37,051 nt of DNA from an uncultured Bacilli bacterium (GTDB taxonomy: Bacteria; Bacillota_I; Bacilli_A; RF39; UBA660): contig CANQAO010000001.1 in the NCBI GenBank assembly GCA_947589375.1, forward strand, positions 1-37,051, written 5' to 3'. Below the pieces are notes generated by a model. That model saw only the letters and a program-made list of their open reading frames with translations, had not been told where the DNA came from and ran no database searches. The stretch's first letter is position 1; every line of letters begins with the position of its first letter. Made by a program: the position numbers and the translations under genes. This document shows positions 97-32,656 of this stretch, piece after piece.

Positions 97-987
97 TTAT
101 TTCTTTTTTATTTTGATGATAAAAAACCCTTCATATAATTCACTTGGTTTTATACAGATTGCTCCTTTAATATTAACTGGTAATAAAGGTATTTCGGGAA
201 ATTGTTTTAAATCAATCGGTTCTATTTTTATATTTTCATTTAAAATACTATTAATTATATTTTCATTTTCTTCTTTTAAAATTGAACAAGTTGAGTAAAC
301 TAATTCGCCACCTTGTTTTAAATGACTTAAAGCTTTTGTTAATAATTCTTTTTGAATTTTTATTGATCTATTTATTAACTCTTCATTTATATATATTTTT
401 TCATTTAAGTTTATCGTTCCACTACCACTACAAGGAGCATCTAATAAAATCTTGTCAAACAGAAAAAATTCATCTAAATTACGGGCATCTATTTGCATTA
501 CTGTCGTTTTTTTAGTGCCTTGTTTTTCAATATTATATTTTAGTCTTTCTGCTCTGATTTTATTTTTTTCACATGCTGTTATTAAAGCTTTACCATTTGA
601 TAAACACGATAATTGGGTTGTTTTTCCACCTGGCGCGGCAGCCATATCTAAAATACTTTCTCCCGCTTTAGGATTTACAATAATGGCGGGAATCATTGAT
701 GATAAACTTTGAAGATAAATTTTTCCGTCTTTATAAATATTTAATTTTCTTATATCATCCTCTTTAGCATTTTCAATAACAAAAGCTTCATTATACCAGG
801 GAACTTTAGTAAATTTTATTTTAGCATTTATAAGTTCTTTTTCTACTGCTTCTGCTTTCGTTTTTAGAATATTTATTCTAAAAGTGACTGGTTTTGTTTT
901 TTCATAACTTTTTAAAATATCATTAATATCTTTCGGATATTCTTCCTTTATTTTTTTAGATAAAAATTCTGGTATTTGCTTATTCAT
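97..987 (-). CDS. NOL1/NOP2/Sun (RsmB/RsmF-like) SAM-dependent RNA cytosine-C5 methyltransferase
   Basis: 296-aa ORF with the SAM-binding motif DMAAAPGGKT and the two catalytic-Cys motifs DAPCSGSG and YSTCS that typify RNA m5C methyltransferases. Confidence 0.85.
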   Translation of the reverse strand: MNKQIPEFLSKKIKEEYPKDINDILKSYEKTKPVTFRINILKTKAEAVEKELINAKIKFTKVPWYNEAFVIENAKEDDIRKLNIYKDGKIYLQSLSSMIPAIIVNPKAGESILDMAAAPGGKTTQLSCLSNGKALITACEKNKIRAERLKYNIEKQGTKKTTVMQIDARNLDEFFLFDKILLDAPCSGSGTINLNEKIYINEELINRSIKIQKELLTKALSHLKQGGELVYSTCSILKEENENIINSILNENIKIEPIDLKQFPEIPLLPVNIKGAICIKPSELYEGFFIIKIKKK

Positions 988-1034: not shown

Positions 1035-2702
1035 TTATTTATCCTTATTAATTTTAAATGTTGCTTGATAACTATTTTGTAAATCTATTTCATCAACATC
1101 AATATAATATCCCATTTTTTCAATTTCATTGGCGCAATTTCTAATAATTTTAATAACTTCAGCAAAATTAGAACTTGCATCTATGGTCTGTGGAGCTTTA
1201 GTTTCTAAAATATCAGCTGGAGGAATTGGCACTGAAGTTGGAGCTGGCTGAGCAATCGTTTGAGGTTCATTAACCAATGGCGCTGATTGCACTAATTCAT
1301 TATATAAAGATTGATTGTTTGCCGTCGGACCCATAGCCGGAGATTCTGGTTGTAAAGATGGTTCCACTGGCTTTTCAGGTAAATCAGAATTTATAGCTCT
1401 TTGAACAGCCGCAGCAATAGCGGCATTATTATTTACTATCGGTTTTTCTTCTTTAACAAAAGCGGTTGGTGCTGGTTCAGAAATATTTAAAGATGGTTCC
1501 ACTAGCGGAACTTGTTGCGAAGTTGACATAGTAGTCTGAGCTTCTATAGGTGTTGAAGTTTCCACTGGTGTATCATTCATGGTTAAAGATTCTGGTTTCG
1601 GAGTTTCAGCTGGTTGCTGTAAATCAGTAGGTGTAAAATTAAACATTGAATCAAAACTCGTAGTGTTTGGTTGTGCAGGAGCTGGGGCTGGAGTTGGTGC
1701 AGGATTTTCAGCCGCAATTCCAGCAAAATTTACAAATTTATTTTGTTCATCATTTACTAAAGGAATATCGGGATTATTGGCAGGTTTTGGAGTTTCAGTT
1801 ACTTCTGGGGCTGGCTGAGGATTATTTATTCCTTCTAAAACACTAGGTGAATCTGGTGTTTGTTTCATTAATCCCGTAATATCTTTTTCTTCAGATGGAA
1901 CATTAATATCTTGGGCTTCTTGCATTATTTTATCTATATCCATATTTTTTTCCTCCCTTTTTATTCTTTCGTTTATTTCTTGTGGTGGATTAACTTTAAT
2001 AATATCATGACTAGCAACTGCTACCGCTCTTCGAGGTTTTCGTGGGAGTGGTGTAGCAAATAATTCTTCGATTTCCTTATCATTAGTTGGTGCGGGAGCT
2101 TCTAAAAGCTCTTTGATGGCATCGTCAGTTCTTTTTACGGTTAATCTTTCATTAATAATGCGATTTAGCATTTGTACTTGATCTTGGTTATTGTGAATTC
2201 TAAGTAGTGAACGAGCATGTCTTTCGGAAATTTTTCCGTTTAATAAAGCATATTGAACTTCGTCATCTAAGTTTAACAATCTTATTTTATTAGCTATTGT
2301 TGATTGGGATTTTCCAAGTTTTTTTGCAAGTTCTTCTTGTGTAATATAACCCATATCTAAAATTCTTTTATATGATACAGCTTCTTCAATCGGGGTTAGA
2401 TTTTGTCTTTGAACATTTTCCAGTAAAGCAATTTCTTCACTTTCTTTATCGGTTAGATTTATCACGATAGTGGGAATTACACTTTTACCAGCTAATCTAC
2501 TAGCTTTAAATCTTCTTTCACCGGCAATAATTTCATATTTATTACCAATTTGGCGCACAATAATCGGTTCAATGACACCATATTTACGAATAGATTCAGC
2601 TAATTCATTTAATTTATTATCATCAAAATGAATGCGTGGTTGAAATCTATTTGGCAAAATATCATTCATATTTAAGTAAGTAAAATTGCTGCCATTTTCC
2701 AT
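1035..2702 (-). CDS. ParB/Noc-family nucleoid-binding protein (Noc-like) with a long disordered insertion
   Basis: 555 aa. The N-terminal ParB/Srx domain has PNRFQPR and GERRFKAS (arginine patch, aa 61-68). The HTH region reads LGKSQSTIANKIRLLNL...ISERHARSLL (aa 121-167). Aa ~201-510 are low-complexity P/T/E/Q/A/N-rich. Aa 511-555 (VIKIIRNCANEIEKMGYYIDVDEIDLQNSYQATFKI) resemble the Noc/ParB C-terminal dimerisation domain. It lies directly downstream of rsmG, where noc sits in Bacillus. Confidence 0.9.
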   Translation of the reverse strand: MENGSNFTYLNMNDILPNRFQPRIHFDDNKLNELAESIRKYGVIEPIIVRQIGNKYEIIAGERRFKASRLAGKSVIPTIVINLTDKESEEIALLENVQRQNLTPIEEAVSYKRILDMGYITQEELAKKLGKSQSTIANKIRLLNLDDEVQYALLNGKISERHARSLLRIHNNQDQVQMLNRIINERLTVKRTDDAIKELLEAPAPTNDKEIEELFATPLPRKPRRAVAVASHDIIKVNPPQEINERIKREEKNMDIDKIMQEAQDINVPSEEKDITGLMKQTPDSPSVLEGINNPQPAPEVTETPKPANNPDIPLVNDEQNKFVNFAGIAAENPAPTPAPAPAQPNTTSFDSMFNFTPTDLQQPAETPKPESLTMNDTPVETSTPIEAQTTMSTSQQVPLVEPSLNISEPAPTAFVKEEKPIVNNNAAIAAAVQRAINSDLPEKPVEPSLQPESPAMGPTANNQSLYNELVQSAPLVNEPQTIAQPAPTSVPIPPADILETKAPQTIDASSNFAEVIKIIRNCANEIEKMGYYIDVDEIDLQNSYQATFKINKDK

Positions 2703-2735: not shown

Positions 2736-2764
2736 ATAATACTATTTTTTGGGAAATAATTCAA
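2736..2764 (-). promoter_or_regulatory. Candidate sigma-A promoter for the ParB/Noc-like gene
   Basis: On the minus strand: TTGAAT (2759-2764), a 17-nt spacer, then TATTAT (2736-2741). The RBS GAGGGGAGGG precedes the ATG at 2702. Confidence 0.4.
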
Positions 2765-2808: not shown

Positions 2809-3507
2809 TTATAAAGGTTTTTTCTTAATTTCGGCAAATCTTCGAGGATATTTCCCGGGAGTATTTCCCAATTTTTGATATTTAATAATTGTTCGTTGAC
2901 TATTTTCGATTGGTAATAAAAATTTATTTTCTTCTTCAAGTTTTAAATTTAATTTTTGTGCGGCTTCTTTACTTTCTTTAGCTTCTTCGCTTCCTTTCAT
3001 GGCAATAAAATATTTAGAAACTTTAACTAAAGGCGCACAATATTCAAGCAGGATATTTAAAGGTGCCACAGCCCGCGCCGTTACAACATCGTATTTTTCT
3101 CTATTTTTTAAGGCATATTCTTCAGCCCGCGTATGAATAATCGTAACGTCTTTTAAAGCTAACTGTTTACATACTTCATTTAAGAAAATAATCCTTTTAT
3201 TTAAAGCATCAATTAAAGTTATCTTTAAATGAGGAAAACAAATTTTTAAAACTATGCCGGGAAATCCCGCCCCTGTGCCCACATCACATAAGGTGGCAAT
3301 CTTTGTCAAATCGATTACTTTAGCTATTGTTAAACTATCATAAAAATGTTTTAAATAAACGTCTTTTTGATCAGTAATCGCCGTTAAATTTATTTTTTCA
3401 TTCCAACTAATGAGTAAATGATAGTATTTTTCTAGCTTTTTTAACATTTCATCAGTAATATTAATATTCATCTTTTTAACTTCATTTATAAATAAATTTT
3501 TATCCAT
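2809..3507 (-). CDS. rsmG: 16S rRNA (guanine527-N7)-methyltransferase RsmG (GidB)
   Basis: 232 aa with the DVGTGAGFPGI SAM motif. It follows mnmG with an 8-nt overlap, the canonical mnmE-mnmG-rsmG order. Confidence 0.95.
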   Translation of the reverse strand: MDKNLFINEVKKMNINITDEMLKKLEKYYHLLISWNEKINLTAITDQKDVYLKHFYDSLTIAKVIDLTKIATLCDVGTGAGFPGIVLKICFPHLKITLIDALNKRIIFLNEVCKQLALKDVTIIHTRAEEYALKNREKYDVVTARAVAPLNILLEYCAPLVKVSKYFIAMKGSEEAKESKEAAQKLNLKLEEENKFLLPIENSQRTIIKYQKLGNTPGKYPRRFAEIKKKPL

Positions 3508-11879: not shown

Positions 11880-11907
11880 GGCATAATCTATGAGGGGGGA
11901 ATTAGCG

Positions 11908-12357
11908 ATGATAGATTATGAAATAACAGGAAGCACTTGTGCTTTAATTGGAATTAATAATAAAGAAACCGAGGTGATTGAAAAAGGTAAACGCTTTATT
12001 ATTCCTAAAAAAACCAAAGATGTTTTAAATGAAAGTTGTGAATTTTATGGAAGTACTTTAGCTGGCCGAATTAAAGGTAGTCAAGTTCAATTAGGAATGA
12101 AATATAAATTACCAATAATTGTTGAAAGTTCTAGGGAATTAGTTTTTTTTCCAACGCTTTCACCACGATTAGAAGATTGTAGCTGGATATCCTTAAAAAA
12201 CATCAAAAGTTATGAAGAAATTGCCTATGGTGTTAATATTGAATTTTGTGATGGAGAAAGCATAAGTCTGCCAATTTCTCTAGAATCTTTGGAAAATCAA
12301 ATCTTTCGAGCGACGAAATTGATGCTTATCGCGCGTAGTCGTCGTGCGAAACTATAA
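11908..12357 (+). CDS. comK: ComK-family competence transcription factor homolog
   Basis: About 149 aa. It aligns with recalled B. subtilis ComK blocks: SCEFYGSTLAGR (cf. SCRFFGSSYAGR), PIIVES...VFFPTLSP...C.WIS (cf. PPIMV...LFPTLS...CGWIS) and LPISLESLENQ (cf. LPISYNSFENQ). The start is at the ATG 8 nt after GAGGGGGG. Confidence 0.8.
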   Translation: MIDYEITGSTCALIGINNKETEVIEKGKRFIIPKKTKDVLNESCEFYGSTLAGRIKGSQVQLGMKYKLPIIVESSRELVFFPTLSPRLEDCSWISLKNIKSYEEIAYGVNIEFCDGESISLPISLESLENQIFRATKLMLIARSRRAKL

Positions 12358-12498: not shown

Positions 12499-13611
12499 AT
12501 GATACTAAAAAATATAGAAATCAGAAATTTTCGAAATTATGAACATCTCAAAATCGACTTAAATAAGAATATTAATATTATTTATGGCGATAATGGTGGC
12601 GGTAAAACCAATATTTTAGAAAGTATTTATGTTTTAACTTTAACTAAATCGCATCGCGCTTTAACTAATGTCGATTTAATTAAAAGTGGAAAAGATAAAG
12701 CCTTAATCAAAGGAACTATGCTGGAAAACATTTCTTATAATTTAGAAATTGAAATTTCGAAAACGCAAAAGCAAGTGAAAATTGATAATGAAGTTATTAG
12801 TAAAATTGGCGATTATGTCAGTAAAATGAATATTATCATGTTTTATGCCGAAGACTTAGAATTAATTCATGGTTTTCCTAGTAATCGAAGGAAATATTTA
12901 AATTTATCGCTTAGTCAAATTTCCAAAAATTATTATAATACTTTAAATGATTACCACAAGTTGCTGCGCACGCGTAATGAATATTTAAAAAGGATCAGTA
13001 ATAATGAAAGTTACGATGCCAATTATTTCGATATTTTAACTGAATATCTAATTGAAAAAAGTGTTTTTATTTATCAAATGCGGGAAAAATATATTGAAAA
13101 GTTAAATGATATTTGTCCAAAAATATATAAAGACATTACTAAATTAAAAGGCTTTAAGATAAAATATCTGCCTACGATTTCGTTAGAAGATAATTCGAAA
13201 GAGGCCATTAGAAAAGAAATGCGCGACAAATTAAAAGAAAATTTTGAAAAAGAAGTGAAATTTAAAACAACTTTATGTGGTCCTCACCGTGATGATTTTG
13301 GATTTTATTTAAATGAAGATAATTTAAAATCATTTGGTTCCCAAGGTCAACAAAGAGTAGCTGTTTTAACTTTAAAATTATCAGAAATTCAAATTTTTAA
13401 AGATTATAAGAAAGATAATCCAATTATTTTATTAGACGATGTTTTTAGTGAGCTTGATAATGAAAAGAAAAATAATTTACTTAAATATATCAATAACGAT
13501 ATGCAGGTAATTATTACAACGACTGATTTAAATAATATCGATGAAAAATTAAAAGCCAAAGCTAAATTAATTAATATTAACAAAGGAAAAATTATAGAAG
13601 AGGTGAAATAA
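12499..13611 (+). CDS. recF: DNA replication and repair protein RecF
   Basis: 370 aa with Walker [13 protein letters not shown], the signature SQGQQR and Walker [12 protein letters not shown]. The stop overlaps the gyrB start (TAATG). Confidence 0.96.
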
Positions 13612-15536
13612 TGGCAGAAAATAAAGAACATTATAATGAATCTGATATTCAAGTATTAGAAGGCTTAGAAGCGGTAAGAAAAAGACCGGGAATGTATATT
13701 GGAACGACCGATGTTAAAGGCTTACATCATTTGGTATGGGAAATTGTCGATAATGCTATCGATGAAGCTTTAGCGGGATATTGTGATAATATTGAAATTA
13801 TTATTAATAAAGATAATTCAATTACCGTTAAAGATAATGGTCGTGGTATCCCAGTGGGAATTCATCCAAAAACTGGTTTATCAACGGTGGAAACTGTTTA
13901 TACGGTTTTACACGCTGGTGGTAAATTTGGTGGCGGGGGCTATAAAGTTTCTGGGGGACTTCATGGAGTTGGGGCTTCAGTTGTTAACGCCCTATCTAAA
14001 GAAGTTACGGTTACCGTTTACAAAGATGGTAAAATTCATGAAGCAAAATTCGCGGATGGTGGAAAAACTATTCAAAAATTAACTATTATTGGGGAATGTG
14101 AACCAGAAAGAACGGGAACTGTAGTTACTTTTAAACCAGATCCGGAAATATTCGATACTGATATCTATGATTATAATACTTTAATGATTCGTACAAGGGA
14201 ACTTGCCTTTTTAAATAAAGGGTTAAGTTTAACTTTAAGAGATGATCGTGATGACGAAGATACAACCGGAGAAACTTTCCACTATGAAGGGGGAATTAGC
14301 GAGTACGTTAAGTATTTAAATAAAAATAAAACGCCAATTGGGGAAGAAATTATTCACTTAGAGGGTGAAGAAGACGATATTATTTTTGAAGTAGCATTAC
14401 AATATAATTCTGGATACAATGAAAGTATTTATTCCTTTGTAAATAATATCAATACTCATGATGGAGGAACGCATGAAGAAGGAGTTAAAAGAGCTTTAAC
14501 CCGAATTTTAAATAATTATGCACGTAAAGCTAATATTTTAAAAGAAAAAGATGATTCATTAAGTGGTGAAGATGTTAAAGAAGGTTTAACAATGATTATT
14601 TCTTGTAAACATCCTAATCCGCAATTTGAAGGTCAAACTAAGGGGCGTCTTGGAAATTCTGAAGTTCGAAAGTTAGCCGATAAAGTTTTTGCCGAAGGAT
14701 TTGAAAGATATTTAATGGAACATCCTGATGAAGCGAAAATCATTATCGATAAAAATATGACGGCGGCGCGGGCAAGGATTGCTGCTAAAAGAGCACGTGA
14801 ACTTACCAGAAGAAAAAGTGATTTAGATGTTGTTAATTTTGGTGGAAAGTTAGTTGATTGTAAAGATAAAGATCCTATTAATAGTGAAATCTTTATCGTC
14901 GAGGGGGATTCAGCCGGTGGTTCAGCTATCAAAGGAAGAAACTCGATGACCCAAGCTATTTTACCACTTCGCGGAAAAATTCTTAATGTCGAAAAAGCCC
15001 GTATTGATAAAGCATTATCAAATGAAGAAATAAGAACAATTATAACTGCTTTTGGGACAGGAATTGGTCAAGAATTCGATTTAAATAAACTAAGATATCA
15101 TAAAATAATTATCATGACCGATGCCGATGTCGATGGCGCCCATATTCGGGTATTGTTACTCACATTATTTTATCGCTTCTTTAGACCCATTGTTGAAGCA
15201 GGTTATGTTTATGCCGCACAACCACCACTTTTCTGTATTAAACATGGTAAAACGATTAAATATGTTTTAAATGAAGAGGAAAGAGATGCTTATTTAGCTA
15301 CTTTAAATCCTAATACTAAATACGATATTTTACGTATGAAAGGTTTAGGTGAAATGGATCCTGAAGAATTAAATGAAACGACTATGGATATTAATACTAG
15401 AGTATTAAGAAAGATAACGGTTGATGACGCTATTGCTGCCGATGAAGCCTTCTCTATGCTTATGGGCGAAGAAGTTGAACCAAGAAGAAAATTTATAGAA
15501 GAAAATGCGCCTTATGCGCAAAATCTAGATGTTTAG
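13611..15536 (+). CDS. gyrB: DNA gyrase subunit B
   Basis: 641 aa with the GHKL ATPase motifs (DNGRGIP, GLHGVG), the Toprim EGDSAGG and PLRGKILNV. It ends ...NLDV at a TAG stop. Confidence 0.98.
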
Positions 15537-15546
15537 GAGGTGCCGT

Positions 15547-18003
15547 ATGGATGATAAGATAAAAGATAAATTAGAAGAAAATAATATAGTTGAAGAAATA
15601 AAGTCATCATTTATTGATTATTCTTTAAGTGTTATCGTTTCACGTGCCCTTCCAGATTTAAGAGATGGATTAAAACCTGTTCATCGTCGTATTTTATATT
15701 CAATGTATGAATCTGGTTATACACCTGACAAACCTCATAAGAAAAGTGCGCGTATTGTCGGAGATGTAATGGGTAAATATCACCCTCATGGTGATTCAAG
15801 TATTTATGATGCTATGGTCAGAATGGCTCAAGATTTTAACTATCGTCATATGCTTGTCGATGGCCATGGAAATTTTGGTAATATCGAAGGTTATAGTGCC
15901 GCGGCTATGCGTTACACTGAATCAAGATTATCGAAAATATCATTGGAACTTTTACGTGATATTAATAGAGATACAGTTGATTTTGTTCCAAATTTTGATG
16001 AATCAGAAAAAGAACCAGCTGTGTTACCATCAAGATTTCCAAATATTTTAGTAAATGGAACAATGGGAATTGCTGTCGGTATGGCAACCAATATTCCCCC
16101 TCATAACTTAGGGGAAGTAATCGATGGATGTGTTGCTTATATCGATAATCCAGATATTGATGTTTTAGGTTTAATGGAACATATTAAAGGTCCTGATTTT
16201 CCAACAGGCGCCATTATTCTAGGTAATAGTGGGATTAAAAAAGCCTATGAAACTGGTAAAGGAACGATTACGATCCGTAGTCGCGCGCGAATTGAAGAAA
16301 ATAATGGTAAGCAACAGATTATTATTGATGAAGTACCATATGGTATAAATACATCAGAACTTAAAAATAAAGTTGCTGATTTAGTTCATAGTAAAGTCAT
16401 CGATGGTATTTCAGATTATCATACGGATTTAAAAGATGGTATTAAGATTACGATTACGCTTAAAAAAGAAGCAAATGCGCAGGTAGTTCTTAATAATTTA
16501 TATAAGCACACCCAATTTCAAACTAATTATGGTATAACATTATTAATGCTTGATAATGGAGTCCCAAAAACTTTAGGTTTAAAAGATATTATTTCTAAAT
16601 ATATTGATTATCAAAAGGAAATAATTATTAGAAGAACTAAATTTGATTTAGATAAAGCTGAAAAAAGAGTTCATATTTTAGAAGGTTTGAAAATAGCTTT
16701 AGATAATATCGATGCAGTTATTAAACTAATTAGAGGTTCGAAAACTGATGATGAAGCTAGAGCCGGTTTAATGAATAACTTTGCATTATCAGAAATTCAG
16801 GCTAATGCCATTTTAGAAATGAAGTTAAGAAGATTAACTGGTTTAGAAAGAGATAAAATTGAAGCTGAATTAAAAGAATTATTAGCTAAAATCGAAGAAC
16901 TTAAAGCTATTTTAGCTAGCGAAGCTAAAGTTCTAGCTATTATTAAAGAAGAATTATTAGAAATAAAAGAAAGATATAGTGATGATCGTCGTACAGATAT
17001 CGATATGACGGCTATTGACTATATTGAAGATGAATCTTTAATTCCCGTTGAAGATATCGTAGTTACTTTAACGAATAAAGGTTATGTTAAACGTATGACG
17101 AGTGAAACTTATAAAACTCAAAATCGCGGAGGTGTTGGAATTAAAGGTATGACAACCAATGAAGATGATTTTGTTGAGAATTTAATTTCGATGACGACCC
17201 ATGATTATATAATGTTCTTTACGAATAAAGGTAAAACATATCGGGTTAAAGGGTATGAAATTCCACAATTCAGTAGACAATCTAAAGGTTTACCAATTAT
17301 TAATTTATTGCCTTTAGATAAAGATGAAGTAGTTAAAGCAATGCTAAAGGTTAGTAAAGATGAAGAAAATAAATATATTGTATTTTGTACACAAAGAGGT
17401 TTAGTTAAGAGAACAGCTTTAACAGAATTTGAAAGTATAAGATCTAATGGTAAGATTGCTATTACGCTTAAAGAAGATGATGAATTAATTTCCGTTAAGA
17501 AAACAACCGGTGAAAATGAAATTATTATTGCTTCTTCAAATGGTCGCATGATTAGATTTGAAGAAAAAGAAATTAGAGTAATGGGAAGAACAGCATCTGG
17601 TGTTAAAGGTATTGATTTAGGTGATGGTATCTGTGTAGGTTGTGAAATAGCTGAACCTGAACAAGAAATTTTAGTTGTTACTGAAAAAGGTTATGGAAAA
17701 CGTACTAAAACTACTGAATATCGTATGACACATAGAGGTAGTAAGGGAGTTAAAGCTTTAAATATTACTGAAAAAAATGGTAACATTGTCGCCTTTAAAT
17801 TAGTTAATGGAGACGAAGATTTAATGATTATCACAGATAGTGGCATGATTATTAGAATGGAAGTAGCTCAAGTTTCCACAACAGGAAGAGTAGCTCAAGG
17901 AGTTAGGTTAATTAATTTGAAAGATGAACAAAAAGTAGGAAATGTTGCCTTAATTAACAAAGAAGAAATAGCTGAAGCTGATGATTCAGAAAAGGAAGAA
18001 TAA
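15547..18003 (+). CDS. gyrA: DNA gyrase subunit A
   Basis: About 818 aa with the active-site region AAMRYTE, the QRDR-like [10 protein letters not shown] and an acidic C-terminal tail. The start is at the ATG (MDDKIKD) 7 nt after AGGAGG rather than the upstream track start. Confidence 0.98.
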
Positions 18004-18033
18004 AATCTTCTTTTTCTTATAGTTAAAAACTAA

Positions 18034-18049
18034 TGTTTCACGTGAAACG
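18034..18049. promoter_or_regulatory. parS-1 (ParB-binding centromere-like palindrome), 15/16
   Basis: tgtttcacgtgaaacG compared with the consensus TGTTTCACGTGAAACA. Confidence 0.8.
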
Positions 18050-18076
18050 TTGGTAGAAAGATAGAAAAAGAAATAT

Positions 18077-18092
18077 AGTTTCACGTGAAACA
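18077..18092. promoter_or_regulatory. parS-2, 15/16
   Basis: Agtttcacgtgaaaca; its centre is 43 bp from parS-1. Confidence 0.8.
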
Positions 18093-18250
18093 TAGGATAT
18101 ATTTACTTTTTAAATAAATTAAAACTTAAATTAAAAAAGATATAAACCAAGAAAAATAAGGGCTAATTCATTTATAAGTATTAAAATTAACTTTTGAAAA
18201 AATATTCAAAATTAGTTTAAAGAAATAATATTTTATTATCAAACTTTAAA

Positions 18251-18266
18251 TGTTTCACGTGAAACA
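18251..18266. promoter_or_regulatory. parS-3, 16/16
   Basis: tgtttcacgtgaaaca, extending to the 18-bp perfect palindrome atgtttcacgtgaaacat. Confidence 0.85.
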
Positions 18267-18291
18267 TCATTTGCAGAAACAAAAAAACTAA

Positions 18292-18307
18292 TGTTTCACG
18301 TGAAACA
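18292..18307. promoter_or_regulatory. parS-4, 16/16
   Basis: tgtttcacgtgaaaca; its centre is 41 bp from parS-3. Confidence 0.85.
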
Positions 18308-18477
18308 TAGGATATATTTACTTTTTAAATAAATTAAAACTTAAATTAAAAAAGATATAAGCCAAGAAAAATAAGGGCTAATTCATTTATAAGTATTAAA
18401 ATTAACTTTTGAAAAAATATTCAAAATTAGTTTAAAGAAATAATATTTTATTAATTATTTTATTATCAAACTTTAAA

Positions 18478-18493
18478 TGTTTCACGTGAAACA
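18478..18493. promoter_or_regulatory. parS-5, 16/16
   Basis: tgtttcacgtgaaaca (18-bp palindrome). Confidence 0.85.
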
Positions 18494-18518
18494 TCATTTA
18501 CAGAAATAAAAAAACTAA

Positions 18519-18534
18519 TGTTTCACGTGAAACA
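18519..18534. promoter_or_regulatory. parS-6, 16/16
   Basis: tgtttcacgtgaaaca; its centre is 41 bp from parS-5. Confidence 0.85.
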
Positions 18535-18561
18535 TTGGTAGAAAGACAGAAAAAGAAATAT

Positions 18562-18577
18562 AGTTTCACGTGAAACA
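18562..18577. promoter_or_regulatory. parS-7, 15/16
   Basis: Agtttcacgtgaaaca; its centre is 43 bp from parS-6. Confidence 0.8.
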
Positions 18578-18748
18578 TAGGATATATTTACTTTTTAAAT
18601 AAATTAAAAAGTAAATTAAAAAAGATATAAACCAAGAAAAATAAGGGCTAATTCATTTATAAGTATTAAAATTAACTTTAAAAAAAACATTCAGAATTAG
18701 TTTAAAGAAATAATATTTTATTAATTATTTTAATTATCAAACTTTAAA

Positions 18749-18764
18749 TGTTTCACGTGAAACA
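18749..18764. promoter_or_regulatory. parS-8, 16/16
   Basis: tgtttcacgtgaaaca (18-bp palindrome). Confidence 0.85.
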
Positions 18765-18810
18765 TATAATATATTTGCTTTTTTATAATAAATAAGCTAT
18801 TATTATTAAT

Positions 18811-18883
18811 GGCACAACATTTATATCCGAAACAGGTCAGGATCGGAAGATAGCAGCCTTAAAGATCTCTGAATGTGTGTGCC
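18811..18883 (+). ncRNA. ffs: Small (4.5S-type) signal recognition particle RNA
   Basis: ggcacaaca... pairs with ...tgtgtgtgcc to form a long hairpin. The apical domain IV, cAGGTCAGGAtCGGAAGAtAGCAGCC, matches the universal SRP RNA motif CAGGUCAGGUCCGGAAGGAAGCAGCC with a GGAA tetraloop. It is followed by ttttatt. Confidence 0.85.
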
Positions 18884-18901
18884 TTTTATTATGGTGATAG
18901 T

Positions 18902-19306
18902 ATGAATAAATATATGAAATTAGCTTTTAAAGAAGCGGAAAAAGCTTTAAAAACAGATGATGTTCCCGTAGGAGCAGTAATAGTTGAAAAAGGAAAAATA
19001 TTGGCAAAAGCTCATAATACCAAAGAAAAAAAACAAATGGTAACTAGGCATGCCGAAATAAATGCTATAGAAAAAGCTTGTCAAAAAAAACATTGTTGGT
19101 ATTTAAATGATTGTGTTATGTATATAACATTAGAGCCTTGTAAAATGTGTATGGGCGCAATCGAACAAGCGCGAATAAAAAAAATAATATATGCCACCAA
19201 ACGTGAAAAAAAAGTAAATAATATTTTTCCACAAATTACACAAGGTGAAGGTGAAAACGAAGCGCGAAATTTATTAAAATCCTTTTTTGAAAATAAGAGA
19301 AAATAG
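18902..19306 (+). CDS. tadA: tRNA-specific adenosine deaminase TadA
   Basis: CDA fold motifs HAE (RHAEINAIE) and PCxxC (LEPCKMCMGAI). The start is placed at MNKYMKLAFKEA because the longer track ORF (18875) would overlap ffs. Confidence 0.9.
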   Translation: MNKYMKLAFKEAEKALKTDDVPVGAVIVEKGKILAKAHNTKEKKQMVTRHAEINAIEKACQKKHCWYLNDCVMYITLEPCKMCMGAIEQARIKKIIYATKREKKVNNIFPQITQGEGENEARNLLKSFFENKRK

Positions 19307-19373
19307 TGTAAAGTTATTTTCTTTTATTTTCGATAAATGATATAATTAGATTAGTGTTTAGAAGGTGATAAAG

Positions 19374-21116
19374 GTGTATCAAGCATTATATAGAAAATAT
19401 CGTCCAAAAACTTTATCCGAAATTAGTGGACAGGATGTAATTGTAAAAATAATTCAAAATTCTATTCAAAATAATCATATTAACCATGCTTATTTATTTG
19501 CCGGTCCAAGAGGTACTGGAAAAACAAGTATTGCGAAAATATTCGCTAAAATGGTTAATTGTGAAAATTTAATCGAACAAGGTCCTTGCGGACATTGTGT
19601 TAGTTGTACACAAAGCAATAATAGCGATATTGTGGAAATAGATGCCGCTTCGAATAATGGTGTTGACGAGATAAGAGAATTAAGGAATAAAGTTAGTTTA
19701 GTTCCATCTTATAGTAAATATAAAGTATATATAATAGATGAAGTCCATATGCTGACGACGGGAGCTTTTAACGCTTTACTTAAAACCTTAGAAGAGCCAC
19801 CAGGACATGTAATCTTTATTTTGGCGACAACCGATCCTCATAAAATACCAGAAACTATTTTATCTAGATGTCAACGTTTAGACTTTAAAAAAGTCAGTGA
19901 AGAGAGCATTGTTAAACGTTTAAAACAAATAGCTGAAGCTGAAAAAATCGATGTTGAAGAATTAGCTTTAAAAGAAATAGCGCGATTATCAGATGGTGGA
20001 ATGCGTGATTCCATTGGCATGTTAGATCAAGCTGTTGCTTATGCTGAAGGAAAAATATCGGCAAAAGATATACATGATATTAACGGAACCTTGACAGCGG
20101 AAACACTAAAAACTTTAATTAATGTAATAATTACAGGGGAAATCGACGAAGTTTTTAAAATTGTTAATAAATTTAACGAAGAAGGTAAGAATTTTGTCAA
20201 ATTAACAGAAGAAATTATTACTTTTATGCAAAATATGTTATTATTTCAAAAGGCTCCTAGCTTTTTTAAATCAATTGAAAAAGAATATGATTTATATAAA
20301 GATGTTTCTCAAAAAACAAATTCTGAAGATATCTTAGGCTATATTTTGGTTTTAAATAAGTTTTTATCGGAAATGAAAACTACTAATAATCCAAAATTAT
20401 TACTTGAATTAGCATTAATTCAAATAATGAATAAAGAAGATATGGTAAATAGAGTTATCCATATCGATAGTACCAAGGAAAAACAGAATGAAGAAAAAAA
20501 TAATCAAGAAAAAATAGAAATAAAACCTGAAGTCAAAATAGAAGAGAAAATAAAAACAGAACCTGAAGCAAAAGAAGAACAAATAGAAAAGAAAACTGAA
20601 GAAAAAAGTGAAGATAAAAAAGACAAGCCTTTAATGGTGCCAAAAAAAGAAAAAGAAGATAATAAACAGCTAATGGAATTAAAAAATATAAGAATAAATA
20701 ATACTTTAGCTAAATTTTCTAAACAAAAAATGATAGCGGTTAAAAAAGAATTAGAAAAATTAAATGATTATATGTTAGATACCGATATTAATTCTTTTAT
20801 TGAAATAATATTAGATGGAATGTTAAAAGCCGCTAGTGACGATAATTTAATTTTTGTTTATAAAAATGAAAGAACAGCTAAATTATTTAATGATAATATT
20901 TTAAATATTGAAAAAGCTATTCATAAAGCTTTAAAATATAATTATAAAGTAATTGCCACGGATATAAATGATTGGGAACAAATAAAAACTGAGTTCAATG
21001 GCAAGAAGAAAACTTACCAATATACTGAAGAAACTAAAGAAATGTTAGAATCACTTAATAAGAAAAAAAAGGAAACTGAATTTAACGAATTTAAAGATAT
21101 AATCGAATATAATTAG
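19374..21116 (+). CDS. dnaX: DNA polymerase III subunit tau (DnaX)
   Basis: YQALYRKYRP N-terminus, Walker A GPRGTGKTS, a Zn module CxxCxxC, DEVHML and SRCQ. A K/E-rich linker lies at aa ~370-430. The start is probably the GTG at 19374 (after AAGGTGA); the track ORF starts at the GTG at 19365. Confidence 0.95.
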   Translation: MYQALYRKYRPKTLSEISGQDVIVKIIQNSIQNNHINHAYLFAGPRGTGKTSIAKIFAKMVNCENLIEQGPCGHCVSCTQSNNSDIVEIDAASNNGVDEIRELRNKVSLVPSYSKYKVYIIDEVHMLTTGAFNALLKTLEEPPGHVIFILATTDPHKIPETILSRCQRLDFKKVSEESIVKRLKQIAEAEKIDVEELALKEIARLSDGGMRDSIGMLDQAVAYAEGKISAKDIHDINGTLTAETLKTLINVIITGEIDEVFKIVNKFNEEGKNFVKLTEEIITFMQNMLLFQKAPSFFKSIEKEYDLYKDVSQKTNSEDILGYILVLNKFLSEMKTTNNPKLLLELALIQIMNKEDMVNRVIHIDSTKEKQNEEKNNQEKIEIKPEVKIEEKIKTEPEAKEEQIEKKTEEKSEDKKDKPLMVPKKEKEDNKQLMELKNIRINNTLAKFSKQKMIAVKKELEKLNDYMLDTDINSFIEIILDGMLKAASDDNLIFVYKNERTAKLFNDNILNIEKAIHKALKYNYKVIATDINDWEQIKTEFNGKKKTYQYTEETKEMLESLNKKKKETEFNEFKDIIEYN

Positions 21117-21127
21117 GAGGGATAATA

Positions 21128-21424
21128 ATGAATATACAAGCAATGATGAAACAAGCACAAAAAATGCAAAAGGATATGATGAATTCTAAAGAAGAAATTG
21201 ATAATATGACCTTTGAAGGCAAATCTTCTTTAGTAACTATCACAATGAAAGGAACAAAAGAAATAACTAAAGTTAAAATTGATGCCGAGCAAATTGAAAA
21301 TGATGAAATTGAAATGTTAGAGGATATGATTTTAGTTGCTGTTAATGAAGCTAGTAAAAAAGTCGATGAAACAACCGAAGAAAAAATGGGAAAATATACG
21401 CAAGGAATGCCAGGTTTATTTTAA
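21128..21424 (+). CDS. ybaB: YbaB/EbfC family nucleoid-associated protein
   Basis: 98 aa with an MMKQAQKMQ N-terminus and a GMPGLF C-terminus, in the conserved dnaX-ybaB-recR order. Confidence 0.92.
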   Translation: MNIQAMMKQAQKMQKDMMNSKEEIDNMTFEGKSSLVTITMKGTKEITKVKIDAEQIENDEIEMLEDMILVAVNEASKKVDETTEEKMGKYTQGMPGLF

Positions 21425-22020
21425 TGTATCCAAAGACTATTAATAATTTAATTGAATGTTTTAAAAAATTTCCAGGAATAGGCGAGAAAACAGCTGAACG
21501 TCTCGCTCTTTCATGTTTAGAAATGGATGACGAAACAATTGAAACGTTTTCTAAATCTTTAAAAGACAGTAAAACTAAAATAAAAAAATGTAAGATATGT
21601 GGTAATCTATCAGAAGAAGATGAGTGTTCAATTTGTAAAGATCCATCACGTGATAAACATTTATTATGTGTTGTTGAAGAAAGTAAAAACATAATTTTAT
21701 TCGAAAAAATTGGAACATTTAATGGTGTCTATCATGTTTTAAATGGTCTAATTTCCCCACTAGATGGCATCAACCCTGAAGACATAAACATTGCTTCACT
21801 GATTAAACGAATTGAAACTGATGAAATTAAAGAAGTTATTTTAGCTGTGAAACCAACAGTTGAAGGGGAAACTACGGCTTTATATATTAAAAAAATGTTA
21901 GAAGGAAAACCCGTAATCATTTCCAAAATAGCGCATGGGATACCAATCGGTGCCGATATGGATTACATTGATTCTTTGACCTTAGAAATAGCTTTATCTG
22001 AGCGTAGCCAAATTTCATAA
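21424..22020 (+). CDS. recR: Recombination protein RecR
   Basis: 198 aa with an HhH region (FPGIGEKTAERLA), a C4 zinc finger (CKICGN...CSIC) and a Toprim domain. Confidence 0.95.
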   Translation: MYPKTINNLIECFKKFPGIGEKTAERLALSCLEMDDETIETFSKSLKDSKTKIKKCKICGNLSEEDECSICKDPSRDKHLLCVVEESKNIILFEKIGTFNGVYHVLNGLISPLDGINPEDINIASLIKRIETDEIKEVILAVKPTVEGETTALYIKKMLEGKPVIISKIAHGIPIGADMDYIDSLTLEIALSERSQIS

Positions 22021-22256: not shown

Positions 22257-23201
22257 ATGTTAGATGAATATCAAAAAAAGCAACCTATAATTTATAAAAT
22301 TTTAAAAAACGCCGTTAATAAAGATAAGCCATCACATGCTTATCTCTTTGAAACTAATGGTTTTTACGATAGTTATAATTTAATTATGGCTTTTGCAAAA
22401 GCTTTACTATGCCCAAATAAATATACCAATGAAGAAAAATGTCAAAATTGCCATCAATGTCATGTAATCGATCATGGTAATTTCCCGGAAATAAAAACAA
22501 TTAAACCAGAAGGTTTATGGATTAAAAAAGAAGAGCTGCAAAGTTTACAAGCCGAATTTAGTAAAAAAGCTATTATTGGCAATAAGAAAATATATATAAT
22601 TAAAGAGGCCGATAAATTAAACAAGCAAGCGGCTAATTCAATATTAAAATTTTTAGAAGAACCCGAAGAAGGCATTATTGCTATTTTAATGACCGAAAAT
22701 ATTTACAATGTTTTAGAAACCATTAGATCAAGATGTCAGATTTTAACCTTAAAAGAGGATAGTCAAACAGAAAATGTGAATGATACATTAAGTAAAATAG
22801 GCCAAATATTATACGAAAAAAAAGAATTAACCGAAGAAGAACAAGAAAAAATAGAAAAAATTTTGAAATTTATAAAACATTATGAAACAAATCATTTAGA
22901 CACCCTTTTATATACCCAAAAATTGTGGCATGATTATATTAAAACTAAAGAAGATTTAGAAAAAGCTTTTAATTTAATGATTTTATTTTACAAAGACCTT
23001 TTAAATTATTTAAATAATTTAAAAATAGAAATTTTTGATAGTTATGAACCATTAATTAAAGAGATTGCTTTAAAAAATACTTTAAATGATGTTTGTTATA
23101 AAATAAATATCTTGACAGAATTTAAAGAAAAGATAAAATATAATGCAAACACATTATTGTTAATGGACAAGCTGATTATAACTTTAGAAAGGAGGGATTA
23201 A
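22257..23201 (+). CDS. holB: DNA polymerase III subunit delta'
   Basis: 314 aa with SHAYLFE, a Cys cluster CxxCxxCxxI and the SRCQ sensor motif. Confidence 0.9.
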   Translation: MLDEYQKKQPIIYKILKNAVNKDKPSHAYLFETNGFYDSYNLIMAFAKALLCPNKYTNEEKCQNCHQCHVIDHGNFPEIKTIKPEGLWIKKEELQSLQAEFSKKAIIGNKKIYIIKEADKLNKQAANSILKFLEEPEEGIIAILMTENIYNVLETIRSRCQILTLKEDSQTENVNDTLSKIGQILYEKKELTEEEQEKIEKILKFIKHYETNHLDTLLYTQKLWHDYIKTKEDLEKAFNLMILFYKDLLNYLNNLKIEIFDSYEPLIKEIALKNTLNDVCYKINILTEFKEKIKYNANTLLLMDKLIITLERRD

Positions 23202-32418: not shown

Positions 32419-32440
32419 AAATAAATATGCTATAATTAGG

Positions 32441-32656
32441 CATAAGCGATGAAGGAAAGAAAAATAGGTGACTTTATAGAGAGTTTATGGTTGGTGGAAA
32501 TAAACAAGGTGACTATTCCGAATGGTTCTGGAGCTTCTTAGCCGAATAATTAAGCTAAGGCGTATATCTGCGTTAAAGATTTAAGGTAAGCAATAGCTTA
32601 TAAATTAAGGTGGTACCACGTAATTTACGTCCTTATGTTTAAGGATGTTTTTTTTT
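32441..32656 (+). promoter_or_regulatory. T-box leader (tRNA-sensing transcription attenuator), probable Met specifier
   Basis: An extended -10 TGcTATAAT (32428-32436) lies upstream. Stem I has a GA/K-turn (gcgATGAagg ... ctgGAGCtt), an AGAGAG box (32478-32483) and a distal-loop motif ggttggtggaaa. The specifier-loop region is ccgaATGgttctggagc (AUG at 32522-32524). The T-box sequence aaggtggtaccacg is at 32607-32620. The terminator stem cgtcctta/taaggatg (32628-32647) is followed by T9. Confidence 0.85.

Follow-up and report, generated by a model that had tools for sequence, protein, structure and literature searches.

Introduction

The closest described relatives of the gene studied here encode the Noc proteins of Bacillus subtilis and Geobacillus thermoleovorans (structures 7OL9, 7NFU, 7NG0 and 6Y93), which lie after rsmG and specify a ParB-type N-terminal domain with the motifs QPR, GERR and ENxQR. 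We here analyse a gene with the same position and the same three motifs from an uncultured Bacilli bacterium. The gene occupies positions 1035–2702 on the minus strand of a 37,051-bp stretch of DNA (the window), which is the entire contig CANQAO010000001.1 of a metagenome-assembled genome (MAG), and it lies 1 kb from the contig end. It encodes a protein of 555 amino acids with the Pfam domains ParB_N and HTH_ParB that groups with Noc in neighbour-joining trees, and it is the Noc orthologue of an uncultured lineage of low-GC (guanine plus cytosine) gut Bacilli, whose MAGs carry the labels Bacilli, Tenericutes or Mollicutes.

The specificity of Noc for Noc-binding sites (NBS) has been assigned to four residues, Q173, K179, K184 and R201 in the numbering of Caulobacter ParB, and R173 and G201 are conserved across all ParB orthologues (Jalal et al. 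2020, PMC7383237). On NBS, Q173 reads A1 and R201 reads C6, and a single Lys, at either 179 or 184, suffices for NBS specificity (PMC7383237). In a scan of 160,000 variants R173 was retained in every parS-specific variant, and Q173 removes the contact to G1 (PMC7383237). Nucleoid occlusion by Noc requires an N-terminal membrane-targeting amphipathic helix (PMC8429893), and the ParA-binding motif of the ParB N-terminus has been defined as (L/F/I)G[KR]G(L/F/I) (PMC12704722).

The original prediction, made from the DNA letters of the window, had described an orphan Noc-like gene in the neighbourhood of parS-type sites. Three explanations were offered: a Spo0J/Soj pair encoded elsewhere, a Noc-like protein that has taken over parS binding, or a ParA-less system of parS and SMC (structural maintenance of chromosomes). 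Comparison with related genomes backs the first of these. We consider it probable that the protein is an ordinary Noc binding NBS and that the parS array of the window is served by a separate Spo0J encoded elsewhere. Hence, the presence of a Noc-type protein beside parS needs no new biology, given a short contig and insertions between noc and soj-spo0J. The new element is the architecture of the protein, a Noc that lacks the membrane anchor, bears a linker and is common to a large uncultured lineage.

Results and discussion

We first compared the window protein with proteins of known structure. Sequence matches in the PDB reach 208 bits for Geobacillus Noc (7NG0/7NFU) and 175 bits for B. subtilis Noc, above the 150–165 bits of Spo0J/ParB proteins (163–165 bits for Spo0J). 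Identity to the two Noc proteins is 47–51% over approximately 195 residues, compared with approximately 43–45% for Spo0J/ParB of B. subtilis (6SDK and 5NOC), which has the same fold and the same CTP (cytidine triphosphate)-binding motifs. Using NCBIfam models as a further measure, the window protein scores 266 bits with nucleoid_noc and 171 bits with parB_part; the corresponding scores of Spo0J from the lineage are 240 and 220 bits. The ParB/Noc N-terminal CTP-binding domain spans residues 7–98 (2409–2684, minus strand; Pfam ParB_N, E = 1.5e-30) and the DNA-binding helix-turn-helix domain spans residues 100–200 (2103–2405, minus strand; Pfam HTH_ParB). In an AlphaFold2 model built on 51 homologues, residues 5–205 have a predicted local distance difference test score (pLDDT) of 80–96. 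The top Foldseek matches of this model are Noc structures, and the predicted DNA-binding domain fits the Noc–NBS complex 6Y93 with a template-modelling (TM) score of 0.90–0.92 and a root-mean-square deviation of 1.1–1.5 Å. The motifs of the three CTP-binding boxes, Q21-P22-R23 (Box I), G61-E62-R63-R64 (Box II) and E95-N96-x-Q98-R99 (Box III), are invariant among the 51 homologues.

The phylogeny agrees with these matches. Neighbour-joining trees were built with Kimura distances from approximately 200 columns of the N-terminal 200 residues, with 200 bootstraps. Every Noc-like protein from the lineage groups with the Noc of B. subtilis and Geobacillus (195/200 and 191/200 bootstraps), and the lineage Spo0J proteins fall apart from this group and join B. 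subtilis Spo0J. The ParA-binding motif is found in none of 77 lineage Noc-like proteins, the window protein included, versus 71 of 81 Spo0J-like proteins. Noc of B. subtilis and Geobacillus thus shares with the window lineage its clade and the missing ParA-binding motif, together with the NBS consensus found in relatives and the recognition elements GK(S/G)QSTIANK and (S/T)ERHAR. Spo0J, both of B. subtilis and of the lineage, differs from the window protein in its clade, its C-terminal region and an N-terminal LG[KR]GL motif. The diagnosis as Noc-like in the original prediction was therefore right, on the phylogeny, the PDB matches, the fold and the residues alike. The motifs on which it relied are all present (PNRFQPR at residues 17–23, GERRFKAS at 61–68, GKSQSTIANK at 130–139, RLLNL at 141–145 and ISERHARSL at 158–166). 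The reference sequences and the specificity code that it used were also accurate: the B. subtilis Noc and Spo0J sequences are 100% identical to PDB entries 7OL9 and 6SDK over the solved parts (5NOC was also checked), and the code is that of PMC7383237.

The gene could in principle be the organism's chromosomal ParB/Spo0J, misread as Noc and binding the parS array directly. The protein scores below the Noc family cut-off, its name by NCBI-style rules would be ‘ParB/RepB/Spo0J family partition protein’ and its gene is the sole ParB-family gene on the contig. We nevertheless regard such a misreading as extremely improbable, given that the protein groups with Noc and apart from the lineage Spo0J proteins, that it has Q173 and R201 instead of R173 and G201 and no ParA-binding motif, and that its gene occupies the noc position after rsmG, where in relatives the true soj-spo0J pair comes next.

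The specificity positions of the window protein were located by translation and alignment with Noc. Q133 (codon 2304–2306), K139 (2286–2288), N144 (2271–2273) and R161 (2220–2222), all within 2220–2306 on the minus strand, correspond to positions 173, 179, 184 and 201 of Caulobacter ParB. Among the 51 family members Q133, K139 and R161 are invariant and N144 nearly so. The code reads QK(N/S/A/T/G/V)R in the 77 distinct Noc-like proteins compared from the lineage, and Q173 and R201 are invariant with or without an adjacent Spo0J. For the window protein the published code predicts binding to NBS and no binding to parS. Spo0J of B. subtilis and of the lineage has R at 173 and G or S at 201, where the window protein has Q and R.

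Two departures from the textbook motifs had been pointed out in the original prediction, and both are real, although neither is a signal. The first is the Asn at position 184, where B. subtilis and Geobacillus Noc have Lys; because none of the 77 lineage Noc-like proteins has Lys there, the Asn is a lineage trait, and the NBS sites of the lineage are canonical. A lineage whose Noc has Lys at 179 but never at 184, and yet has canonical NBS, fits the published conclusion that a single permissive Lys suffices. The second is the Arg-to-Lys change in the arginine patch (GERRFKAS). Among lineage sequences, GERRxK occurs in 109 of 117 Noc-like versus 46 of 86 bona fide Spo0J proteins and is not diagnostic, because it is common to both. 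That both paralogues have it suggests that the arginine patch has drifted in parallel or undergone gene conversion.

To place the window among its relatives, we surveyed 80 species-representative loci of uncultured gut Bacilli, including MAGs labelled Tenericutes/Mollicutes, Clostridium sp. CAG:609 and Candidatus Ventrenecus, and 80 metagenome loci. The noc-like gene follows rsmG in all 80 species loci, and the same order is seen in every relative examined. Together these species and metagenome loci contain 11 perfect TATTTCCCGGGAAATA NBS 16-mers, where a composition-based estimate gives fewer than 0.001. Most of the perfect sites are intergenic within jag-mnmE-mnmG-rsmG-noc, and many are part of a longer palindrome of 24 bp, AAATTATTTCCCGGGAAATAATTT. 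Examples are found in L112 (2175 and 3707), L043 (2866 and 4304), L069 (7341), L081 (7253), L067 (3178), L031 (9836) and L104 (1542), where they occupy the jag–mnmE, mnmE–mnmG and rsmG–noc intergenic regions. In 18 of 81 loci the 400 bp preceding noc contain an NBS-like site with at most three mismatches, compared with 26 of 1,700 control windows, and fuller sites are present upstream of noc in L031, L026, L076 and L028. In the subclade to which the window belongs, 339 kb of DNA contains four one-mismatch NBS against approximately 0.006 expected (composition-based estimate). The location of NBS in the mnmE–noc operon near oriC suggests a possible local zone of Noc nucleation or autoregulation.

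The window itself has an NBS-like half-site, TATTTCCCAAAAAATA, at 2743–2758 on the minus strand, with a perfect left half and a degenerate right half, approximately 41–56 bp upstream of the noc-like start codon. An element of this type lies at an equal distance from the gene in L005, L006, L007, L010 and L012. In the window it falls between the two hexamers of a promoter-like site (TTGAAT, 17 nt, TATTAT; 2736–2764, minus strand) found by consensus scan, which is a consensus match alone and of a kind no more frequent than in shuffled sequences. An NBS-like palindrome lacking one central base, ATTTCCCGGAAAT, is located within a coding region at 22478–22493 on the plus strand; this 13-mer occurs once each in the window, in L002 (at 21520) and in L006, and may be due to chance or represent a spacing variant of NBS.

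The window carries a conspicuous set of parS sites. Eight sites (TGTTTCACGTGAAACA) lie between 18034 and 18764, within three direct repeats of approximately 230 bp (repeat region 18004–18800) between gyrA and a small signal recognition particle (SRP) RNA gene, 15 kb from the noc-like gene. Five of the sites are perfect and three have one mismatch, where 0.07 would be expected. The original description of the window's sites as parS rather than NBS is thereby borne out. The SRP RNA gene follows directly after the array (18801–18899, plus strand; Rfam, 64 bits). Three relatives have an array at the same position after gyrA: at least seven parS in 39-bp tandem repeats that run into the contig end in L085 (12464–12764), two parS followed by the contig end in L086 (12152–12357), and seven parS over a 1.3-kb stretch ahead of the SRP RNA gene in L087 (12446–13772). 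The same position with differing repeat architecture argues for selection on the parS sites, and hence for a parS-binding protein. No GC-containing palindrome other than parS is enriched in the 339 kb of subclade DNA. No parS-like sites were found in the noc- or spo0J-centred loci, at up to two mismatches in L001–L084 and at up to one mismatch in L088–L167. The array is most likely the target of a Spo0J-type ParB and not of the Noc-like protein. As an aside on assembly, the parS array is a breakpoint for MAGs, given that the contigs of two relatives end inside or right after it.

The candidate parS-binding protein can be seen in the relatives. In 22 of the 80 species loci, and also in many metagenome loci, soj-spo0J lies directly after noc; in L045 it is located 7 kb upstream in inverted orientation. 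Spo0J of the lineage, exemplified by L173 (12810–13682) and L044 (12152–13042), matches the window protein in fold and CTP-binding motifs and is recognized by the LG[KR]GL motif, ‘GKSRSHITN’, ‘SM(G/S)HAR’, R173 and G or S at 201. The most informative locus is L173, a 203-kb contig with the order rsmG, P0039, soj, spo0J, mscS, DUF951, abgT, ychF, rpsF, ssb, rpsR. The product P0039 is a long-form Noc of 625 amino acids nested in the subclade of the window (199/200 bootstraps), which is itself supported in 200/200 bootstraps and characterized by long forms with the motif MDIDKIM. The arrangement in L173 shows that the long-form Noc coexists with canonical Soj and Spo0J in the subclade and is not their replacement. 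This locus also carries SpoIID and M23 peptidase genes.

The order of genes after noc is variable within the subclade. In L006 and L171 noc is followed by an rsmF-like gene, uvrB, a holin gene, lgt, yvcK and whiA, in L001, L002 and L172 by cell-wall or accessory genes, and in L169 by an insertion resembling an integrative and conjugative element (ICE); in none of these loci is soj or spo0J present within 10 kb. More distant relatives have uvrB-lgt-yvcK-whiA-soj-spo0J (L156, L117 and L146) or rlmH-soj-spo0J-abgT-ychF (L128), orders that show a separation of noc and soj by insertions. The flanks upstream of soj in L156, L117, L146, L110 and L128 are colinear with the uvrB-lgt-yvcK-whiA block downstream of noc in the clade of the window.

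A few leads from this comparison were dropped. The colinearity had first suggested a soj-spo0J pair approximately 9 kb downstream of noc in the window's clade, a prediction that was abandoned, given that other genes follow whiA/rlmH in L171, L168, L014 and L027. L161 has, 9 kb upstream of soj, a gene similar to the one at 34.3 kb at the right end of the window, and the colinearity goes no further. Noc-centred and spo0J-centred loci of the non-adjacent types showed no overlap at species-level identity, and in a profile search for a Spo0J of the subclade all 120 proteins listed belong to the clade with adjacent noc-soj-spo0J. The ParA and ParB_N proteins of L169 were rejected as a chromosomal pair: identity to Soj is 43% for the ParA, and the ParB_N protein has GHRR and no HTH_ParB. 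In the same locus (13076–21935) uvrB is reduced to an 88-amino-acid fragment beside the rsmF-like gene, after which comes the ICE-like element with a ParA-like protein of 274 amino acids, a ParB_N-only protein of 313 amino acids, a SpaA-type protein, a sortase, DUF3848 and DUF3991-Toprim. In L014 the gene after rlmH (19340–19858) is a 172-amino-acid open reading frame with the motif NWWCVMFPPFC, which from this motif we take to be SpoIIR-like. Together with the genes of L173, it indicates that sporulation-type genes are present in genomes labelled Tenericutes or Mollicutes.

The window has no gene for a partner ATPase. As originally stated, a ParA/Soj gene is missing from the 37 kb: a scan of all six frames of the window for a ParA-type Walker A motif was negative, and tblastn searches of the window with Soj and Spo0J gave no Soj match and no second ParB match. 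The label ‘orphan’ is correct for the contig, which has no soj or spo0J. It does not extend to the genome, because the contig stops 1 kb downstream of the noc-like gene. From the relatives we infer that Spo0J is very probably present in this particular genome.

ParA-less chromosomal ParB systems occur in streptococci and staphylococci, where, as in the window, a ParB-family gene lies near oriC without an adjacent parA. By analogy, Spo0J could be encoded elsewhere and Soj/ParA be lost, leaving a ParA-less ParB-parS-SMC system with Noc acting independently; the missing ParA in the 37 kb would fit, and the dense parS array might have no role beyond SMC loading. The streptococcal and staphylococcal proteins are, however, Spo0J-type parS binders with R173, in contrast to the Noc-type window protein, and the lineage retains Soj. 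Wherever the lineage Spo0J was seen (the 22 genome loci, nearly all 80 metagenome loci and L173) Soj is encoded directly upstream, and the lineage Spo0J proteins retain the ParA-binding motif LG[KR]GL. A ParA-less system therefore seems unlikely, and this part of the original prediction is unsupported.

The architecture of the protein sets it apart from the described Noc proteins. B. subtilis and Geobacillus Noc have approximately 40 residues before the motif corresponding to PNRFQPR (40 in B. subtilis), including the 10-residue helix MKHSFSRFFG, compared with 16 residues in the window protein. An upstream extension of the open reading frame is impossible, and the ATG is preceded by a ribosome-binding site, GAGGGGAGGG. 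The window protein thus lacks approximately the first 26 residues of Noc, which hold the 10-residue amphipathic helix, helix α2 and a loop, and it is a natural equivalent of the engineered variant NocNΔ26. The N-terminal helix segment is missing from all 85 lineage proteins, including those encoded beside Soj and Spo0J. No cationic amphipathic substitute helix was found in the linker: its strongest amphipathic segment, MDIDKIMQEAQDI, was considered as a replacement membrane-binding helix and rejected, since it is net acidic.

The helix-turn-helix domain is followed by a disordered linker rich in Pro, Ala, Glu and Asn (residues 206–508; 1179–2087, minus strand; AlphaFold2 pLDDT <50). This linker of approximately 300 residues, which includes the conserved motifs MDIDKIM, KFV and FDSMF as well as three short helices predicted by the model, distinguishes the window protein from B. 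subtilis and Geobacillus Noc. Across the lineage the Noc-like proteins are 318–690 amino acids long, with linkers of 40–400 residues. A small C-terminal domain of approximately 45 residues (residues 509–555; 1038–1178, minus strand) is predicted to form a helix and a β-hairpin (pLDDT 84–89 at residues 509–552) and is conserved across the lineage. Neither this domain alone nor the linker alone has a family match in NCBIfam or Pfam. When the linker is spliced out of the protein, its alignment reaches the end of the TIGR04285 profile, at a gain of only 6.5 bits, which gives weak support to homology between this domain and the C-terminal domain of Noc. The longest form, P0100 (690 amino acids; L002, 10001–12073), is encoded on a circular 1.54-Mb contig (ERZ21549425 s0.ctg000001c) and has in residues ~160–330 a tandem duplication of approximately 75 residues, from SERHARSLLR to MMDIDKI, whose second copy is degenerate (SEGHARSLLRPSD...).

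Several observations weigh against an ordinary Noc accompanied by a separate Spo0J. The examined contig of this genome has neither Spo0J nor Soj, and no soj or spo0J was found within 10 kb downstream of noc in 11 loci of the subclade (L001, L002, L007–L012, L168, L169, L171 and L172). L014 and L027 have the block, ending in rlmH, that precedes soj in L128, yet no soj comes after it; a loss of soj-spo0J in some lineages is possible. The membrane-targeting helix needed for canonical Noc function is missing from the window protein, which also does not reach the TIGR04285 cut-off of 315 bits (266.1 bits in native form and 272.6 bits with the linker spliced out), and the specificity code comes from the scaffold of Caulobacter ParB and not from the window protein. 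With respect to sites, there is no full NBS in the window at up to two mismatches, so the NBS evidence there is weak and consists of the promoter half-site and the 13-mer variant only. Perfect NBS are also missing from the 339 kb of subclade DNA, where approximately two would be expected at the density of other clades, a difference that is not significant.

Much of this would also fit a loss of Spo0J, from the genome of the window or from those subclade members in which soj-spo0J is not next to noc, with the anchor-less Noc-like protein acting as the parS-binding centromere and SMC-loading protein. Such a takeover could draw on the lack of Spo0J on the contig and near noc in the 11 loci, on L014 and L027 lacking soj-spo0J at the position that it occupies in L128, and on parS being the sole enriched GC-containing palindrome in DNA with no perfect NBS; a protein without a membrane anchor would, moreover, not be bound to the classical Noc role. 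If this were true, the ParB-to-Noc specificity switch would have been reversed or broadened in nature with the four canonical residues unchanged. We find it very unlikely. The subclade shows no variation at Q173 and R201, which it shares with relatives that possess Spo0J, and the published scan, in which all parS-specific variants had R173 and Q173 cost the G1 contact (PMC7383237), speaks against parS binding by such a protein. The subclade retains one-mismatch NBS and the promoter NBS element, L173 has the long-form protein alongside canonical Soj and Spo0J, and the Noc-like protein has no ParA-binding motif. The takeover proposed in the original prediction is thus without support.

For the ordinary Noc and separate Spo0J that we favour, the mechanism can be outlined by analogy with B. 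subtilis. A dimer of the Noc-like protein would nucleate on NBS palindromes, TATTTCCCGGGAAATA, through its helix-turn-helix domain, with Gln133 reading A1, Arg161 reading C6 and Lys139 as the permissive contact. The clamp would then close in a CTP-dependent manner, using the intact Box I, II and III motifs, and slide along the DNA. Sites of the parS type would not be recognized by this protein; the eight-site array would instead be the centromere of a separate canonical Spo0J (R173 and G/S201), most probably encoded together with Soj elsewhere in the fragmented genome. Recruited to the array, Spo0J and Soj would most likely act in origin segregation and SMC loading. In the subclade, noc and soj-spo0J would have been parted by insertions after noc, namely the rsmF-like gene, uvrB, lgt, yvcK, whiA and accessory or mobile genes.

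The lineage Noc proteins combine NBS-type residues, matched by canonical NBS sites in the lineage, with a missing anchor helix and variable linkers. If they still couple the nucleoid to division, another route than the helix is needed. If they do not, they show an NBS-binding CTP clamp without a membrane anchor. The assignment of DNA binding, CTP use and cellular role to the window protein rests on its likeness to B. subtilis Noc.

Neighbouring genes and other observations

The window has a GC content of approximately 29% and spans oriC, with a flip in GC skew near 8.7–9.2 kb. Genes of the minus strand follow one another as rnpA, yidC, jag, mnmE, mnmG, rsmG, the noc-like gene and an RsmB/F-type rRNA methyltransferase gene. 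The original account of rsmG, a lone ParB-family gene and an RNA methyltransferase gene in that order holds, with Pfam matches to GidB, ParB_N/HTH_ParB and Methyltr_RsmB-F. The gene rsmG (gidB; 2809–3507, minus strand; Pfam GidB, E = 5e-57) precedes noc in a conserved arrangement. Directly downstream of noc lies the methyltransferase gene (97–987, minus strand; Pfam Methyltr_RsmB-F, E = 1.9e-47), and the contig ends 96 bp beyond it. Its orthologues in L169, L170, L006 and L171 are 58–61% identical and occupy the same position after noc; in L170, as in L006 and L171, uvrB, lgt, yvcK and whiA come further downstream. We looked for rRNA genes as a cause of the contig ends and found none.

Two further features of the window are unrelated to noc. 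A T-box leader is located at 32440–32637 on the plus strand (Rfam, 123 bits). Between dnaN and recF the window has a ComK-family gene (11890–12357, plus strand; Pfam E = 8e-36), and every relative examined has a gene of this family in that place (L001, L002, L085–L087, L168, L171 and L173).

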